Virus record (IMG/VR): IMGVR_UViG_2547132415_000023
Length of the DNA: 29,605 bases
Direction: 5' to 3' (one strand)
Origin: a virus
Lineage: Duplodnaviria; Heunggongvirae; Uroviricota; Caudoviricetes
The translations under genes were made by a program, and so were the position numbers. The notes under the pieces are model-generated. The model saw only the letters and a list, made by a program, of their open reading frames with translations, had not been told where the DNA came from and ran no database searches. This document shows positions 4,514 to 14,053 of this stretch, one piece after another (position 1 is the stretch's first letter; every line of letters begins with the position of its first letter).

Positions 4514-6736
4514 TTGGCTGTTCAATTCGCTTATCCGTGGAACGTCCCACGGTCGGCAATCTCCAGCCCATACCTTACTTATGAGCAACAGCATCGCCGC
4601 GACCGTATGTTCGCGGCTTTGCTGCATGCAAAAAAGGTGCTTTCTCTCCAGCCCGACTGCGTGCGGTTAGATGTTTATCGCACTGCTGCGGTGCTGGAGC
4701 AAAATCAGGGTAGTCAACGAGCCAATGCATTTTTAATCAACTTCTGCAAAAAGGCATTGCCGCGTCTTGAAATGGTCGCAAAAAAATACGAATGCGCTGG
4801 TATCAACAGCAAGGTATCAACCGCTGTTTTTGGAAGTCATTTTGATACTCAGCAAATGCAATATCTGTCGTCACGCATGGTTAATATGGTCGCCCGATAT
4901 AACCGTCTCCCGGATATGTCGCGCGCTGATGTTGACCTGTTGGCCGCTGATATTGCTAATTTCATTCGTGGTGAACTTGCCAACATTAATGACCACGGAT
5001 TCGGCGAGCTTAAAACGCTGTACACCTGGTATATTCGTGCTGGCTTTATTTCCCTCCAATTTAACGTTATCCCACCACATTGGGAGCGGGTTGAAAAAAA
5101 ATATGTCGGTGCGGATGAAATCGCACCGGCTATCGCCAAAATGTTTAACGATGGGTGGTGGCGCGGTCGTTTGCGCCGTGTTGCAGCTACGTGGCGCGAA
5201 CACCTGCAAATTGCAGTCGGCAACGTCAGTAAGAAAAAAAACACTTACGCGAGTAAAAACTGCGTGACTGACTGGCGTGAACAAAAGCGCCGCACTCGTG
5301 AATTTCTCAAAGGTCTGGATCTCGAAGACGAAGACGGCAACCGTATCAGCCTGATTGAAAAATATGATGGCTCAGTTGCTAACCCTGCGATTCGCCGCTG
5401 TGAGCTCATGACCCGCATTCGTGGGTTTGAAAACATCTGTAATGAGCTCGGTTATGTCGGTGAGTTTTACACTCTAACCGCGCCGTCAAAATATCACGCC
5501 ACGACTAAAGCCGGTTACCGTAACAGCAAATGGAGCGGTGCCAGCCCGGCTGACACGCAAAACTATCTAACCGGTATCTGGGCGCGTATCCGTGCCAAAC
5601 TACATCGGGAAGATGTCCGTATTTTCGGTATTCGTGTCGCCGAGCCTCATCACGACGGCACTCCACACTGGCACATGCTGATGTTCATGCTGCCGGAAGA
5701 TGTTGAATATGTTCGCTCCATCGTCCGTAAATACGCATGGAAAGAAGACCGCCACGAACTGAAAAGCGATAAATCCAAAAAAGCACGTTTCCACGCCGAG
5801 TCCATTGACCCGGAGAAAGGCAGCGCAACCGGCTATGTTGCTAAATACATCTCAAAAAATATCGACGGTTATGCTCTCGATGGTGAAACCGATGATGAAA
5901 GCGGTGAGCTGCTGAAAGAGACAGCCCCCGCCGTTTCAGCATGGGCTGCGCGCTGGCACATCCGTCAGTTTCAGTTTATTGGTGGTGCGCCGGTGACGGT
6001 TTACCGTGAGTTGCGTCGCCTCGCTGATACCGAAACCGCGCACGGTCTGAGCGTTGAGTTTGCCGCCGTCCATGATGCCGCCGACGCTGGTGACTGGGCT
6101 GGTTATGTTAATGCTCAGGGTGGGCCGTTTGTCCGTCGCGATGATTTACAGGTGCGCACACTGTATGAACCGCGTACCGAGCTTAATCAGTACGGTGAGG
6201 AAACGGTATGTATTAAGGGGGTCTACGATTCCTCCATAGGTGCAGGAAGCCCGATTTTAACCCGGCTCACTCAGTGGAAGATTGTTCCGAAGCGTGCTGT
6301 TGATTTGGCCGTTGACCTTCAGGACGGCAAAGCCGTCCCTCGGAGTTCTGTCAATAACTGTACGGGAAGCGAAAGCGATCCACCGATACTGGATTTAACA
6401 AAACCACTGAGTCGGCGTGAAAGACGAGAATTGACCAACCGACTCAGGAAGCAAAAGCCAGCAGCACGGCGAAAATTCATCCACGGAACGGATGAGCAAA
6501 ACGCAGCTATAGCTAAAACTATCGACGAGATACATCTGACAACCGGCATTAATATCAGCCGGGGCGAAGCCCTGCACCTGATGGCCGGTGGTAAAAGTTG
6601 TTTTGATGGTAAATGGCTACGCGGAACGGCCAAAGGAGAAATATTTTCCGCAGCACCATCGCATGAGGCTAAAGCTCGGAAAATCCTTAATCGTGTTGCG
6701 GCGATGGCTGAAGCATCAAAACCAATACATGAGTAA
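4514..6736 (+). CDS. A: Replication initiation endonuclease gpA (rolling-circle initiator)
   Basis: 740 aa. HxH metal motif region EPHHDGTPHWHMLMF and catalytic-tyrosine region GYVAKYISKNIDGYA are typical of P2/186 A proteins. Position after the early genes fits. Confidence 0.9.
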   Translation: MAVQFAYPWNVPRSAISSPYLTYEQQHRRDRMFAALLHAKKVLSLQPDCVRLDVYRTAAVLEQNQGSQRANAFLINFCKKALPRLEMVAKKYECAGINSKVSTAVFGSHFDTQQMQYLSSRMVNMVARYNRLPDMSRADVDLLAADIANFIRGELANINDHGFGELKTLYTWYIRAGFISLQFNVIPPHWERVEKKYVGADEIAPAIAKMFNDGWWRGRLRRVAATWREHLQIAVGNVSKKKNTYASKNCVTDWREQKRRTREFLKGLDLEDEDGNRISLIEKYDGSVANPAIRRCELMTRIRGFENICNELGYVGEFYTLTAPSKYHATTKAGYRNSKWSGASPADTQNYLTGIWARIRAKLHREDVRIFGIRVAEPHHDGTPHWHMLMFMLPEDVEYVRSIVRKYAWKEDRHELKSDKSKKARFHAESIDPEKGSATGYVAKYISKNIDGYALDGETDDESGELLKETAPAVSAWAARWHIRQFQFIGGAPVTVYRELRRLADTETAHGLSVEFAAVHDAADAGDWAGYVNAQGGPFVRRDDLQVRTLYEPRTELNQYGEETVCIKGVYDSSIGAGSPILTRLTQWKIVPKRAVDLAVDLQDGKAVPRSSVNNCTGSESDPPILDLTKPLSRRERRELTNRLRKQKPAARRKFIHGTDEQNAAIAKTIDEIHLTTGINISRGEALHLMAGGKSCFDGKWLRGTAKGEIFSAAPSHEAKARKILNRVAAMAEASKPIHE

Positions 6737-7035: not shown

Positions 7036-7266
7036 ATGAGAATCAATATCACGTTGGATAAAGAGCAAAAATTAGGGCAACAGATCATTGATGCTTTTCA
7101 GAATGAAATAACACATCGAGTACAATGCGTTTTTCCTGCAACAAAAGTTAACGTTAAGAAAGGGTCAATGACTAGTGTAGAGGCTATCGGATTCGATAAA
7201 GAGACGGACAGAGAAACATTAGGCAGCATATTACAAGAGATTTGGGAAGACGATAGCTGGCGTTAA
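7036..7266 (+). CDS. DinI-family protein
   Basis: 76 aa: MRINITLDK...IIDAF..EITHRVQCVFP...ILQEIWEDDSW matches the DinI pattern (MRIEVTI...RRIQYAFP...ILQETWE..DDW). Same frame as the preceding ORF. Confidence 0.75.
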   Translation: MRINITLDKEQKLGQQIIDAFQNEITHRVQCVFPATKVNVKKGSMTSVEAIGFDKETDRETLGSILQEIWEDDSWR

Positions 7267-7465: not shown

Positions 7466-7693
7466 ATGCATCGACTATCAGGTGAAATTCCGCATCACAA
7501 AACCAAAAGCATCAAACTGATGGCCATCGTTCATCGTCTGCAGCAGATAATGGTCAATGAGAATTTGACACCCACAGAGCTGGTCGGGTGTGCCGAAATA
7601 GTCAGGGATAATTACGGCAAGCTGGATAGCATCAGCAGGCCGATACAATACGCCCCCCACCACGTCGACGATAGCAAACGTCGTCAGCGCTGA
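7466..7693 (+). CDS. Hypothetical small protein
   Basis: 75 aa ORF with GAGGGCG RBS, bracketed by the two ~40-bp direct repeats. No recognisable motif. Confidence 0.35.
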   Translation: MHRLSGEIPHHKTKSIKLMAIVHRLQQIMVNENLTPTELVGCAEIVRDNYGKLDSISRPIQYAPHHVDDSKRRQR

Positions 7694-7752: not shown

Positions 7753-7956
7753 CGTAGAGACCGCTCCAAACCGTCGCCCTGAATGCCGGTTTTTTTATGT
7801 CATTTTCCCGCGATTTCCCCGTTTTTTAGCCGTGCATGCATCAGGTGCATGGTTTTGCATGCGTCAGTCTTGCCCCTTCTGTCCGTGCGCCGCCAGAGCT
7901 GGCGCGGATCCAGAGTTGTCATGCAACTGCATTAAAACCGACCCATAAAGCGGGCA

Positions 7957-7975
7957 GGCGTGGCGGGGAAAGCAT
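7957..7975 (+). other. cos site (19-nt cohesive-end sequence) of a P2/186-type phage
   Basis: GGCGTGGCGGGGAAAGCAT followed by TGCGCGC matches my recollection of the P2/186 cohesive ends (P2 GGCGAGGCGGGGAAAGCAC). Orientation agrees with a leftward portal gene to its right. Confidence 0.55.
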
Positions 7976-8239
7976 TGCGCGCAACGAACAAAAATGATTT
8001 TTGGAACTTTGATTGTTTTGGCAACGTTGTCTTAATGTAGTTGATGTCTAATGACTTATGTGCTGTCATAGCGGCAATAGCTTGTATGACTCTTATCGAT
8101 AGACTAATTAAATTATATAAATCAGATTACTAATGTGCTAAAGCGATTATAAGACTAACTCCATCATAAATTAAAGAATTAAGTTAGTCTGTTAAAATAG
8201 GTGAATTGAGAGAAAGTAATTTATAAATTAGGAGGAAAT

Positions 8240-9568
8240 ATGAATTGTAATGAACTTTTTTATTCCGCTGACAACCATGCATTAACGTTGCATGAAAGAA
8301 CAAAGTTATCTACGGTTGTTTTAGATAAAGGCATTACAAAAAAGAATGAATTAATAGAGTTTTTGAGAGAGGAATTAAAAGGGTCATTTGGTTGCGACGT
8401 TAAGTTTTGGTTGCAAGGATCATACAAAAGTCACACTCTCATTAAGCCTGTTGATAAGTTTTCTTCATATGATATTGATGTGGGCATTTATTTGTTCTTT
8501 GATGCAGAGGCTGAAGAGATTAATTCAAAGGATGTAAAGGATACGTTGAAAGATGCTTTACTATCTTACTGCGAAATAAATAACGAGGCGAAGATTCAGG
8601 AGTCAAAGAATGCGTGTGAGGGATTAATATTCTCCTCCTTTCTTACAATCGACACCCCTATCTATTATAAAACAACGACAAAAGTAAAACTTGCAACAGA
8701 TAAAGGTTGGAGTGATAGCGATCCAAAAGCTATACAAGACTGGTTAACAAATTCACATGCTACAAAACCAGCTAGAGCATTAATGAAACGGCTCGTCCGT
8801 TACTTTAAAGCATGGGTTAATGTACAGTGGCACGGTACTTCATTTAAAAAAATACCTTCGTTAGCGATAAATGTCCTAGTTGCTAATAACTTAAGTATCC
8901 ATGATAGAGAGGACGATTGTTTTATATATACAGTGTTAGCTATTTGTGAGCAATTAGAGCGCTCAATGGAAGTAGAGAATCCTCTTAATGGCACCAATTT
9001 GCTTGCGATGCCTGATGATGCTTTAACTTTCGCGCATCAAAAGCTTCAACAATTGAAGAAAGTTTGTATAGATTGTATAGATGCCAACGAAAATGAAAGG
9101 AATATAAATTTTTCTAATTTATTCCAACATTATTTCCCTCAGGTAACGATCGTATCAAACGGAGGGGGAACTGGTCTGCCAGCGATTACTACAACCCCAG
9201 AAATATCTGTCTGTCGTTATGATAAACATGGTTCCCACATTGAAACTGTCTTAACGGATCAGTTAACGGTTGATAAAGGTGACTCATTAACATTCACCAT
9301 TTGTAATCCTGGGGCTTTTAGCCCTTATGCTCAGACGAAATGGACGGTTAGAAATGTTGGTAGCCAAGCTAATGATGCCAATGATATAGGGCACATTGAA
9401 TATGGAAAACCCAACGAAAGTCATAAACGGGGAACGTCTTATACTGGCTCGCATACGATGGAATGTATGGTTACTTACAATGGCGCTGTTTTAGGTTTAA
9501 AAGTTATTCAAGTTATAGTACGGCCTGCAATTTCTGTTAAAAGACCTATTAGAAAGTTTTGGAGATGA
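8240..9568 (+). CDS. cGAS/DncV-like (SMODS-type) nucleotidyltransferase with C-terminal extension; candidate signal synthase of a defence module
   Basis: 442 aa, strong RBS AGGAGG at 8231-8236. Pol-beta NTase signature G60-S61 ... D78-I-D80 (QGSYKSHTLIKPVDKFSSYDIDVGIYLF), with further acidic residues downstream. About 140 C-terminal residues are Gly/Thr/Ser-rich and beta-like with no recognised match. Low-GC gene. Confidence 0.7.
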   Translation: MNCNELFYSADNHALTLHERTKLSTVVLDKGITKKNELIEFLREELKGSFGCDVKFWLQGSYKSHTLIKPVDKFSSYDIDVGIYLFFDAEAEEINSKDVKDTLKDALLSYCEINNEAKIQESKNACEGLIFSSFLTIDTPIYYKTTTKVKLATDKGWSDSDPKAIQDWLTNSHATKPARALMKRLVRYFKAWVNVQWHGTSFKKIPSLAINVLVANNLSIHDREDDCFIYTVLAICEQLERSMEVENPLNGTNLLAMPDDALTFAHQKLQQLKKVCIDCIDANENERNINFSNLFQHYFPQVTIVSNGGGTGLPAITTTPEISVCRYDKHGSHIETVLTDQLTVDKGDSLTFTICNPGAFSPYAQTKWTVRNVGSQANDANDIGHIEYGKPNESHKRGTSYTGSHTMECMVTYNGAVLGLKVIQVIVRPAISVKRPIRKFWR

Positions 9569-9572
9569 TAGT

Positions 9573-10151
9573 ATGTGGGAACTAATGCCACCAAAAGCTA
9601 AATACGGCTTATCAATTGGAATTTCTATTCTTATCTTCCTTATGTATAAGGAATGTTTTAAGTTTCCTTTTGCTAGATCTATCTCCTTTACGATCAGTAC
9701 CATTACCATCCTTGCTTGGTTATTTGGAAAGTATTTATGGAAATATATTTATTTTGGTATCTTTAAACGGAATTTTTGCCCAGATTTTAATGGCACGTGG
9801 ACGGCTACGATAAAATCAAATTTTAGCCCGAATACTCAGGTTGAATTTCCATTAAAGATAGAGGCTAATTTCTTCTCTGTTAAGATGACAGGCAATACCA
9901 CTATCGGAAGAACCTACACAAATCTATGTAAAATTGTTCGTGCAGAAGATGATAGTTTCGAGTTGGTATATATGTTTAGAGTTATGAATGACTCTCCATC
10001 TGATTCTGATGCTGTTTTCTATGAAGGGGCGGCGAGGTTACGTGTAGTTGACATTGACTCTATGCAAATGATAGGGGTCTTTTGGACAAATCGATGTTGG
10101 CAAAATAATTTAAACACTGCTGGTTCTATAACTTTAACGAAACAGAGTTAG
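9573..10151 (+). CDS. Small membrane effector candidate: two N-terminal TM helices plus beta-rich C-terminal domain (Cap15-like)
   Basis: 192 aa, starts 4 nt after the NTase stop with its own GGAG RBS. Hydrophobic segments LSIGISILIFLMY (~13-25) and ISFTISTITILAWLF (~37-51); the C-terminal ~130 aa shows alternating hydrophobic patterns suggesting beta strands. Confidence 0.65.
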   Translation: MWELMPPKAKYGLSIGISILIFLMYKECFKFPFARSISFTISTITILAWLFGKYLWKYIYFGIFKRNFCPDFNGTWTATIKSNFSPNTQVEFPLKIEANFFSVKMTGNTTIGRTYTNLCKIVRAEDDSFELVYMFRVMNDSPSDSDAVFYEGAARLRVVDIDSMQMIGVFWTNRCWQNNLNTAGSITLTKQS

Positions 10152-10207
10152 CTTTCATTAATTTCAATCCTACTTTTCTTGGGTCAGGATTAACAGACTC
10201 TGTCAGA

Positions 10208-10238
10208 GTTGGTACGTACCATTTAGTTGGTACGTACC
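10208..10238. repeat. Tandem pair of 10-bp perfect palindromes (GTTGGTACGTACC x2)
   Basis: GTTGGTACGTACC at 10208-10220 and 10226-10238, each containing GGTACGTACC; adjacent CTCTG-T-CAGAG inverted repeat at ~10198-10208. In the convergent gap between the 2TM gene and portal gene ends. Confidence 0.5.
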
Positions 10239-10245
10239 CTATCAT

Positions 10246-11262
10246 CTAATCCTCGTCAATACTGTAATCCTTGAAGCGGACCACTTCCATTCCCAGCCAG
10301 TCATTAATTTCTTTAAATCGCTCCTGCAACGGTGTCAGCTCATTACGTACGAACACCTTTGCCACCTTCTCAACATCACCGAGCGACGCGATGTTTTCAG
10401 GCTTGCCCCCCATTAGCTGGAACGGCACGCGGTGTGCATCGAGCAGGTCAGCGGCGCTCACCTTTTTAATGTTAAAGAAATCATCTTTCGTCGCGACCTC
10501 ACTCAAAGGCACGATCTTGATGCCGTCGGGTTTACCGTTTGGCGCATAGAAAAACAGGTTTTTAAAATTCCCTAGTCCTTTTGAGTCACGCATGGCCGAG
10601 CGCAGCGCATCAACATCCGTGCTGCTTTGTGCCGCATCGGTCACATACATGATGTAACCCGCATGCGCCCCGTTCTGGTAATACTTGCGACGAAAAAGCG
10701 TGGCGGATTCATTCAGCCACGCGGAATTGAGTGCGCTCAGGTATTCCGGCATGCCATAAAGCTCCTGATTGATGTCAGGCTCCAGCAGGTGAAACACCGA
10801 GCCGGGTGCGAACTGGTGCGGGTTGTTAAAACTCGAAATGTACCAGTAAACTCCATCCTCAACGCCACGACGGGTATATTTAGCAGGTGATGTTTCCAGT
10901 TTTATAAGCTGGCCGGTGACGCTCATGCGCTTCTCAAGATAGCCGTTGGCAAAGACCAGATAATCCAGTACGAGGCGGCTGAAATCCTGACGTGACAGCA
11001 GCGGGTGCGGGATGTAGGTACTCGCCAGAATGTTACGTTTCACGTAAATCGGCGAGCTGTGATGAACGGCGGCGCGCAGGCTTTTTGCCAGACCAGAGAA
11101 GTTGACCGGCGGCTCGTACCACTTACCGTTATTGATGCACTCGACATAATCGAGGATATCGCGACGATCCAGAACGGCAGAGGGCTCGCCAAAGGTGAAC
11201 GCCTCCATTTTTTGCGGTGCGCTAACGGTCGTTGTGGTGGGTATCTTCAGTTGCTTTTTCAT
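10246..11262 (-). CDS. Q: Portal protein gpQ
   Basis: 338 aa, size and position (leftward, next to cos, preceding P) match P2 Q. Confidence 0.9.
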   Translation of the reverse strand: MKKQLKIPTTTTVSAPQKMEAFTFGEPSAVLDRRDILDYVECINNGKWYEPPVNFSGLAKSLRAAVHHSSPIYVKRNILASTYIPHPLLSRQDFSRLVLDYLVFANGYLEKRMSVTGQLIKLETSPAKYTRRGVEDGVYWYISSFNNPHQFAPGSVFHLLEPDINQELYGMPEYLSALNSAWLNESATLFRRKYYQNGAHAGYIMYVTDAAQSSTDVDALRSAMRDSKGLGNFKNLFFYAPNGKPDGIKIVPLSEVATKDDFFNIKKVSAADLLDAHRVPFQLMGGKPENIASLGDVEKVAKVFVRNELTPLQERFKEINDWLGMEVVRFKDYSIDED

Positions 11263-13198: not shown

Positions 13199-14053
13199 AT
13201 GGCAAAAAAAGTCTCAAAATTCTTTCGCATCGGCGTCGAGGGTGACACCTGCGACGGCCGCATTATCAGCGGCAACGATATTCAGGAAATGGCCGAATCG
13301 TTTGACCCTCGCGTCTACGGTTGCCGCATTAACCTTGAGCATATTCGCGGTCTCTTTCCTGATGGCGACTTCAAACGCTTAGGCGATGTGGTTGAACTGA
13401 AAGCTGAAATAATTGACGACGATTCTGCGCTTAACGGCAAATGGGCGTTGTTCGCCAGAATCACCCCAACCGACGACCTGATTGCGATGAATAAAAAATT
13501 GCAGAAGGTCTACACCTCAATGGAAATTCAGCCGAATTTTGCCAATACCGGCAAATGCTACCTCGTCGGCCTTGCTGTCACCGATGACCCGGCGAGCCTC
13601 GGCACTGAATACCTCGAATTCTGCCGCAACGCGAAGCACAACCCTCTGCAGCGCTTTAAGGCCAACCCTGAAAACGTCTTTTCCGCTGCCACGCTGGCCG
13701 AACTGGAATTTGAAGACGTTCCCGATACGGTGCTAAACAGCCTGGCAGATAAGGTGAAAGCCATTTTCAGCCGTAAGCAGGTCAGCGACGATGCGCGCCT
13801 GAATGATGTGCATGAAGCGGTGACCACCGTCAGCGAGCATGTGCAGACCAACCTCACTGCGCAGGATCAGCGTCTTTCCGCTATGGAAGCCGCGCTTACC
13901 ACCTTTAAACAGGAACTGACCGGCAAGATTGAAGAAACCAGCCAGGCATTTTCCGCCCTGAAAGCCACCCTCGACAAAACCGAAAGTTTCAGCCAGCCGC
14001 GACGCACGAAAGCCAGCGGCGGTGGTGGCGATGAGCTGCTGACCGACTGCTGA
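13199..14053 (+). CDS. O: Capsid scaffolding protein gpO
   Basis: 284 aa, first gene of the rightward late operon divergent from P; size identical to P2 O. Confidence 0.85.
   Translation: MAKKVSKFFRIGVEGDTCDGRIISGNDIQEMAESFDPRVYGCRINLEHIRGLFPDGDFKRLGDVVELKAEIIDDDSALNGKWALFARITPTDDLIAMNKKLQKVYTSMEIQPNFANTGKCYLVGLAVTDDPASLGTEYLEFCRNAKHNPLQRFKANPENVFSAATLAELEFEDVPDTVLNSLADKVKAIFSRKQVSDDARLNDVHEAVTTVSEHVQTNLTAQDQRLSAMEAALTTFKQELTGKIEETSQAFSALKATLDKTESFSQPRRTKASGGGGDELLTDC

Follow-up and report, generated by a model that had tools for sequence, protein, structure and literature searches.

The window analysed here is the whole 29,605-nucleotide stretch of the Caudoviricetes virus record IMGVR_UViG_2547132415_000023. 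It contains, on the plus strand, the gene of a nucleotidyltransferase resembling cGAS and DncV (CD-NTase) whose catalytic core is followed by a C-terminal AGS-C domain, and immediately downstream the gene of a Cap15-like transmembrane effector. An earlier note on this DNA had singled out the C-terminal part of the cyclase as an unassigned domain of about 140 residues, matching no known CD-NTase accessory domain, and had guessed at a phage-sensing or regulatory role. The two genes comprise the following features.

8230..8235, plus strand: Shine-Dalgarno motif AGGAGG, read from the sequence, 4 nt 5' of the ATG at 8240.
8240..9568, plus strand: CD-NTase (CdnB-like) gene with C-terminal AGS-C, an open reading frame (ORF) of 442 aa plus stop.
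8240..9139, plus strand: CD-NTase catalytic core with both lobes (residues 1-300), from Pfam PF21654, NCBIfam cGAS and Foldseek.
9140..9202, plus strand: Gly/Ser/Thr/Pro-rich flexible interdomain linker (residues 301-321), with low predicted local distance difference test scores (pLDDT) and high variability.
9203..9523, plus strand: AGS-C immunoglobulin (Ig)-like beta-sandwich (residues 322-428), matched by Pfam over residues 325-427 (9212-9520).
9524..9565, plus strand: disordered polybasic C-terminal tail (residues 429-442, PAISVKRPIRKFWR), with low pLDDT and outside the Pfam AGS_C model.
9573..10151, plus strand: gene of the Cap15-like transmembrane effector (192 aa), separated by 4 nt from the stop codon of the cyclase.

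Codon 301 (Q) of the cyclase begins at position 9140, the peptide VTIVSNGGG begins with residue 302, and the stop codon occupies 9566-9568. Nearly the entire protein (residues 2-441, E 1.3e-159) is spanned by the PADLOC model PDLC00824 for cyclases of the cyclic oligonucleotide-based antiphage signalling system (CBASS). The N-terminal core is matched by Pfam PF21654 (E 3.8e-18), and the NCBIfam cGAS model aligns with its positions 3-339 (of 339) to residues 2-300, so that the model is exhausted by residue 300; residues 182-258 show a weak match to DncV_C. The G-S...D-x-D...D pattern of catalytic residues is represented by G60-S61, D78, D80 and D138, none of which varies across the cyclase family. 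In the full-length AlphaFold2 model, built from 43 homologues (pLDDT 90.7, predicted template modelling score 0.89), the helical C-lobe comprises residues ~162-298 and the nucleotidyltransferase (NTase) core closes with a helix at 284-298. It is followed by a linker with a mean pLDDT of 55-57 for residues 301-320, by nine beta-strands and one short helix with pLDDT above 90 (residues 322-428), and by a tail that is disordered from residue 429. Foldseek places BfCdnB (7LJO) first among the matches of residues 1-300 (E 7e-18, template modelling (TM) score on the target 0.84), with DncV and DwCdnB next; the N-terminal part appears to be that of a clade-B-like CD-NTase, in agreement with the presence of AGS-C. 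No low-confidence internal loop is present in the NTase core of the AlphaFold2 model, in which no block of residues 1-300 has a mean pLDDT below 84. Segments with pLDDT below 50 are confined to residues 306-315 and 439-442, and the turn equivalent to an internal activation loop is four residues long (145-148).

The region behind the core is richer in Gly, Ser and Thr (28% in residues 301-442 versus 16% in residues 1-300) and its folded part (residues 322-428) is predicted all-beta at pLDDT above 90; the earlier note had read the region as Gly/Ser/Thr-rich and apparently beta-rich. It does not lack an assignment, though. Pfam PF18134 (AGS_C) matches with 66.6 bits against a gathering cut-off of 26.7 (E 2.8e-18, profile positions 23-128 of 129), and the C-terminal piece alone matches seven PADLOC CBASS cyclase models as well as two PycC models of the pyrimidine cyclase system for antiphage resistance (Pycsar). 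The domain stands at the C-terminus behind a complete CD-NTase core, as expected for the Pfam family, and possesses all AGS-C signature residues (F352, W368, V370, R371, N372, G374, A377, D382, G384, H385, Y401, G403, H405, M407 and C409). A PDB search with the single sequence of the C-terminal domain matched no chain; the family profile gave a weak match to 9ARD, 'Cytidylate cyclase', carried by two motifs, RN-G-EA and G-H-ME. Residues 312-442 were also modelled on their own (pLDDT 90.4), and this model was compared with solved structures by Foldseek, a check that the earlier note had proposed. Every E-value was weak (1e-3 or worse), and the top TM-score, 0.60, belongs to 9ARD_A; the predicted domain is an Ig-like beta-sandwich resembling the solved AGS-C of EcPycC (9ARD). 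Residues from about 322 to 428 thus almost certainly constitute an AGS-C domain (PF18134). The folded domain is real, and a chance feature is ruled out by the Pfam E-value of 2.8e-18 together with an architecture kept in all 61 full-length homologues. Of the ~140 residues claimed earlier, ~108 are folded, the remainder being linker and a 14-residue tail; an extra domain exists, smaller than supposed and already present in PADLOC CBASS and Pycsar models and with a solved homologue.

The combination of PF18134 and PF21654 occurs in 61/61 full-length homologues, down to 28% identity. An exhaustive search of 1.84 billion representatives yielded 125 clusters at E <= 1e-3, while a word-indexed protein database search with the C-terminal piece alone gave 2 matches. 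According to the family profile, nearly all proteins of at least 386 aa among the 125 representatives combine a CdnB-like NTase at the N-terminus with an AGS-C ending within 0-20 residues of the C-terminus. The signature residues are each conserved in 84-100% of the 123 representatives at or below 50% identity; among the polar positions, R371 is conserved in 87%, N372 in 98%, D382 in 95%, H385 in 96%, Y401 in 97% and H405 in 92% of them, with E/Q376 near-invariant. In all-versus-all comparison AGS-C and NTase have similar identities (0.46 versus 0.51), i.e. similar evolutionary rates, and homologues whose NTase is closer to the query are also closer to it in AGS-C (r = 0.95 between the two identities). 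Because identities correlate and rates are similar, the two domains appear from these alignments to be one co-evolving functional unit, not a shuffled or hypervariable module.

Conservation inside the domain is uneven. Judged by strand order, the conserved polar residues are all located in loops at one tip of the sandwich (mean entropy 1.29), whereas the loops of the opposite tip are the most variable (2.21); the most variable AGS-C loops are 355-364 and 390-394, even among the closest homologues. The linker is the most variable segment of the family (all-versus-all identity 0.31, entropy 2.26). The tail keeps its charge, the last 16 residues carrying a net charge of +4 to +9 in 42/43 family members, usually with an aromatic residue; its consensus is RRKKIFKGFRR, or PRNPxxPxWTxLRR in distant members. 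The polybasic tail of the window protein (PAISVKRPIRKFWR) might bind membrane or nucleic acid.

Several matches were discarded. Three proteins found by phmmer, P0067 (7300 aa, 17 stretches), P0158 (765 aa, 7 stretches; a low-complexity repeat protein) and P0105, have no support from the family profile and are treated as spurious. AGS-C matches of 230-290 aa without CdnB have N-terminal parts that resemble the C-terminal halves of other NTases and are regarded as truncated genes. One protein outside the window, P0137 (318 aa), joins a patatin phospholipase domain to the last ~100 AGS-C residues. It was rejected as a new architecture, the first AGS-C strands being missing and the join falling mid-domain; more probably, a capV-cyclase operon suffered a deletion or was chimerically assembled.

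The product of the downstream gene is matched by the PADLOC two-transmembrane effector model PDLC00682 (E 1e-29), by Pfam Cap15_CD_rec (E 1.7e-6, 28.8 bits, just under the cut-off of 31.2) and weakly by Cap15_TM, so that it is a likely member of Cap15. The cyclase and the 192-aa effector are the sole genes between a cos-like (cohesive-end) site and the portal gene; accessory genes (Cap2/Cap3, HORMA/TRIP13) are absent from this interval. The same gene pair is present in Escherichia albertii NBRC 107761, with the cyclase 71% and the effector 65% identical, in a scan of one genome per species, and the narrow-alignment scan of this set returned 5 loci. An E. albertii CdnB-Cap15 operon, perhaps of the same strain, reportedly served as the model system of Duncan-Lowey et al. 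in 2021. In homologous systems the nucleotide signal is made by the cyclase at a late stage of infection, and the membrane is disrupted by Cap15. The cyclase and the Cap15-like protein form a predicted two-gene type I CBASS, an abortive-infection system, carried as cargo of the gpA-gpQ hotspot of a prophage, of which the following features are relevant here.

4514..6736, plus strand: replication protein gpA (P2/186-type), one border of the hotspot; PHROG 91 (E 5e-284), and Pfam Phage_GPA in identical loci.
7036-7266 and 7466-7693, plus strand: DinI/Tum-type gene and small conserved ORF (PHROG 11386), between gpA and cos.
7957..7975, plus strand: cos-like 19-mer GGCGTGGCGGGGAAAGCAT, left edge of the low-GC cassette, from the PSP3 end alignment.
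10205-10240: direct repeat GTTGGTACGTACC containing the palindrome GGTACGTACC, two copies 16 bp apart, in the spacer between the Cap15-like and portal genes.
10246..11262, minus strand: gpQ (portal protein), bounding the hotspot on its other side; PHROG 68 (E 3e-170) and Pfam Phage_portal.
13199..14053, plus strand: gpO-type protein of the carrier prophage, matching head-scaffolding and head-maturation-protease PHROGs.

The cassette has a GC content of 0.34-0.37, compared with 0.47-0.60 in its surroundings, and is flanked by gpA with the DinI/Tum-type genes on one side and by the portal and terminase genes on the other. The linear record of phage PSP3 aligns with its right end (position 30636) to about position 7956 of the window, directly before the 19-mer at 7957-7975, which we take to be the 186-type cohesive end; the cassette therefore sits just inside cos, between cos and the portal gene. 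The DinI/Tum-type and PHROG 11386 genes, typical of SOS-inducible 186/PSP3-like phages, suggest a prophage of 186 type and not of P2 type. The gpA-gpQ interval has been described as a defence hotspot by Rousset et al. (PMC9122126). Proteins of the gpO class are also those whose mutations let T1-like phages escape CdnB06-Cap15, and one may ask how the cassette would avoid being triggered by its own phage upon induction.

None of 5,426 complete RefSeq E. coli genomes contains the cassette (window positions 8000-10200), 83 bp of flank alone being matched there, and it is likewise missing from a collection of 50,697 phage records. The identical cyclase (P0001) is present in E. coli assemblies, in 92 contigs and 174 index blocks (draft and metagenome), with the same neighbours.

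AGS-C has been surveyed before. An Ig-like AGS-C fusion of about 18 kDa is present on some 40% of the cyclases of type I CBASS, near-universal in clades B and H and never found in clades A, C, D and E; AGS-C operons provide broader protection against T1-like phages and less against some other families (bioRxiv 10.1101/2023.05.21.541620). The same study reports that phages escaping CdnB06-Cap15 have a prohead protease substituted in its scaffold domain and gain partial cross-resistance to divergent operons that share AGS-C, and it proposes a role of AGS-C in phage sensing or cyclase regulation (10.1101/2023.05.21.541620). A 2026 preprint shows that many CD-NTases are switched on when prohead proteases cleave a disordered loop inside them; activation loops of this kind are mapped in clades A, D and G only, and AGS-C is not mentioned (PMC12991175).

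Taken together, the window encodes an AGS-C domain, attached by a flexible linker to a clade-B-like CD-NTase and paired with a Cap15-like partner, in a type I CBASS carried as prophage cargo; we give this full explanation a probability of roughly 0.85. Within it, AGS-C probably acts as a sensor or regulator of cyclase activation. The earlier guess of such a role coincides with the published hypothesis and is hence not new. Some enzymes are reported, in the version of the survey that appeared in Cell Host Microbe in 2024, to need AGS-C for defence against select phages. Direct recognition of a phage protein by the domain is conceivable, yet we would lean slightly against it. Activation loops being reported for clades A, D and G only, and the present core having none, clade B needs other means of sensing. 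In the proposed sequence of events, AGS-C would hold the cyclase off until a cue of late infection arrives, probably one tied to virion assembly and involving the prohead protease or the scaffold. The cue would then allow cyclic nucleotide synthesis, and the nucleotide would activate Cap15 and lead to membrane disruption. The invariant polar tip (K346, R371, N372, Q/E376, D382, H385, Y401, H405) may be the unchanging contact surface, for the cyclase or for a shared ligand, and the variable loops of the opposite tip (355-364, 390-394) may tune which phages are sensed.

Several points weigh against this account of phage sensing. Diverse phage proteins would be an unexpected partner for a polar patch so strongly conserved, which is more in keeping with a constant small ligand or an intramolecular contact, and the assignment of residues to the two tips derives from the strand order given by DSSP, i.e. 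from topology rather than coordinates. Purified phage proteins gave no activation of CD-NTases in vitro, and the evidence on AGS-C in the preprint is correlative (10.1101/2023.05.21.541620).

A more specific version of the regulator model can be formulated, although it is unlikely as a whole. In clade-B cyclases, which are without the internal loop, AGS-C would be a two-faced tethered regulator, whose polar tip keeps the enzyme off by clamping the cyclase or binding a constant ligand. Its variable tip, together with linker and tail, would engage procapsid-assembly intermediates of incoming phages (prohead protease or scaffold); this binding, or cleavage of the linker, would release the enzyme. 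If this were true, the domain would also have to ignore the scaffold-protease gpO (13199..14053) of the resident 186-like prophage, because the cassette rides on a prophage that makes its own gpO, and the system would possess a built-in discrimination between self phage and foreign phage.

Other explanations differ in what they leave to AGS-C. The best of them, still improbable, regards the domain as an allosteric sensor of a small molecule or nucleotide, as the Pfam name was first meant: a metabolite or nucleotide altered during infection would bind the polar tip, with no direct recognition of phage proteins. Near-invariant polar and charged residues in 123 representatives would be expected of a ligand site and are not usual in a passive Ig scaffold, the domain occurs likewise on unrelated cyclase folds (CD-NTases and Pycsar PycC), and the failure of purified phage proteins to activate CD-NTases in vitro (10.1101/2023.05.21.541620) would agree with it. 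No ligand is known, however, the conserved patch could equally be a docking surface for the cyclase, and the operon-specific escape mutations in phage structural proteins, with cross-resistance shared through AGS-C, point to a cue linked to a phage protein.

Less probable again is that the domain and its polybasic tail form a module for localisation or assembly, at the membrane, near Cap15, on nucleic acid, at procapsids or in oligomers, and sense nothing. Such a role would suit the basic tail with its usual aromatic residue (42/43 family members) and the frequent membrane-effector partners, which are Cap15 here and SLATT6 in AGS-C operons of CdnF (10.1101/2023.05.21.541620); the Pycsar-2 subclade with AGS-C is associated exclusively with transmembrane effectors, and oligomerisation is a common role of Ig-like domains. 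But AGS-C is also paired with the soluble effectors Cap5 and CapV in CdnG09 operons (10.1101/2023.05.21.541620), the signal is a diffusible nucleotide for which co-localisation is not obviously needed, and the conserved polar tip is left unexplained.

By analogy with the loops of clades A, D and G, AGS-C could also be autoinhibitory, with the prohead protease of an incoming phage cutting the linker (residues 301-321), freeing the domain and activating the cyclase. Prohead protease cleavage does activate many CD-NTases (PMC12991175), an exposed linker of about 20 residues is available here where the internal loop is missing, and the CdnB06-Cap15 escapers map to the prohead protease/scaffold gene. 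Their mutations, however, are in the scaffold domain and not in the protease domain, the linker, less conserved than any other segment, shows no cleavage motif shared by the family, the source on activation loops says nothing of AGS-C and maps such loops to clades A, D and G alone (PMC12991175), and the conserved polar tip would need a separate explanation if release were the whole story; we consider this cleavage model very improbable. The weakest reading takes the region for no more than the usual helical C-lobe of CD-NTases, mistaken for a beta-rich domain. This was the counter-case that the earlier note had named against itself, and it could be encouraged by a review that labels the helical C-lobe of DncV 'AGS-C' (PMC7288161), but it retains next to no probability, since the helical lobe is already accounted for at residues ~162-298 of the AlphaFold2 model, the cGAS model ends by residue 300, solved CD-NTases align to the first ~300 residues only, with no match at 322-428, and the C-terminal domain is predicted all-beta with pLDDT above 90 and matches the solved Ig-like AGS-C (9ARD). 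The usage of the name in that review differs from the Pfam family matched here and from the solved Ig-like domain.

The preferred reading, AGS-C as a probable regulator of a CdnB-like cyclase, concerns a domain that is already catalogued: it has been a named Pfam family since the comparative genomics of SMODS (synthetases of oligonucleotide or dinucleotide second messengers) systems, and operons of the same architecture have been tested against phage panels. The example of AGS-C in the window is ordinary. Control of cyclase activation by AGS-C nevertheless matters, as ~40% of type I CBASS carry the domain and clade B is without the protease-sensing loop. The window offers a natural, compact, prophage-borne CdnB(AGS-C)-Cap15 cassette as a convenient test case for the AGS-C mechanism, and the conserved polar tip, the variable opposite tip and the conserved basic tail, which are the additions of the present analysis, provide a shortlist for mutagenesis.

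Among known systems, the solved homologous domain is the AGS-C of the E. coli Pycsar cyclase PycC (PDB 9ARD), with 18% identity to the window domain. The catalytic partners differ, being a CD-NTase in the window protein and a class III-type pyrimidine cyclase in PycC, and the window subfamily possesses a conserved polybasic tail outside the Pfam AGS_C model. The same CdnB-AGS-C plus Cap15 architecture is found in the B06 operons (EaCdnB06, PspCdnB06, PpCdnB06 and AspCdnB06), whose phage-tested enzymes are about 50-75% similar to each other (10.1101/2023.05.21.541620). The window allele is not among the tested B06 operons and differs in its setting, as prophage cargo next to cos of a 186/PSP3-like phage. 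The 'Ea' of EaCdnB06 presumably stands for E. albertii, and we take its strain to be the same as NBRC 107761.

For the catalytic core, CdnB of Bacteroides fragilis (7LJO) and of Deinococcus wulumuqiensis (8YSI and related entries) are among the best structural matches of residues 1-300, at an identity of ~20%. The matched CdnB chains, with 290-331 residues resolved, cover the first ~300 residues of the query, and none reaches AGS-C. EcCdnG, DncV and EcCdnD belong to the same superfamily, and what activates them is, as proposed here for the window protein, connected with virion maturation late in infection (PMC12991175). These enzymes have the internal loop, whereas the window protein is without a disordered loop of ~30 residues in its core: the DncV loop-deletion mutant aligns to the window protein in one piece, and wild-type DncV splits in two.

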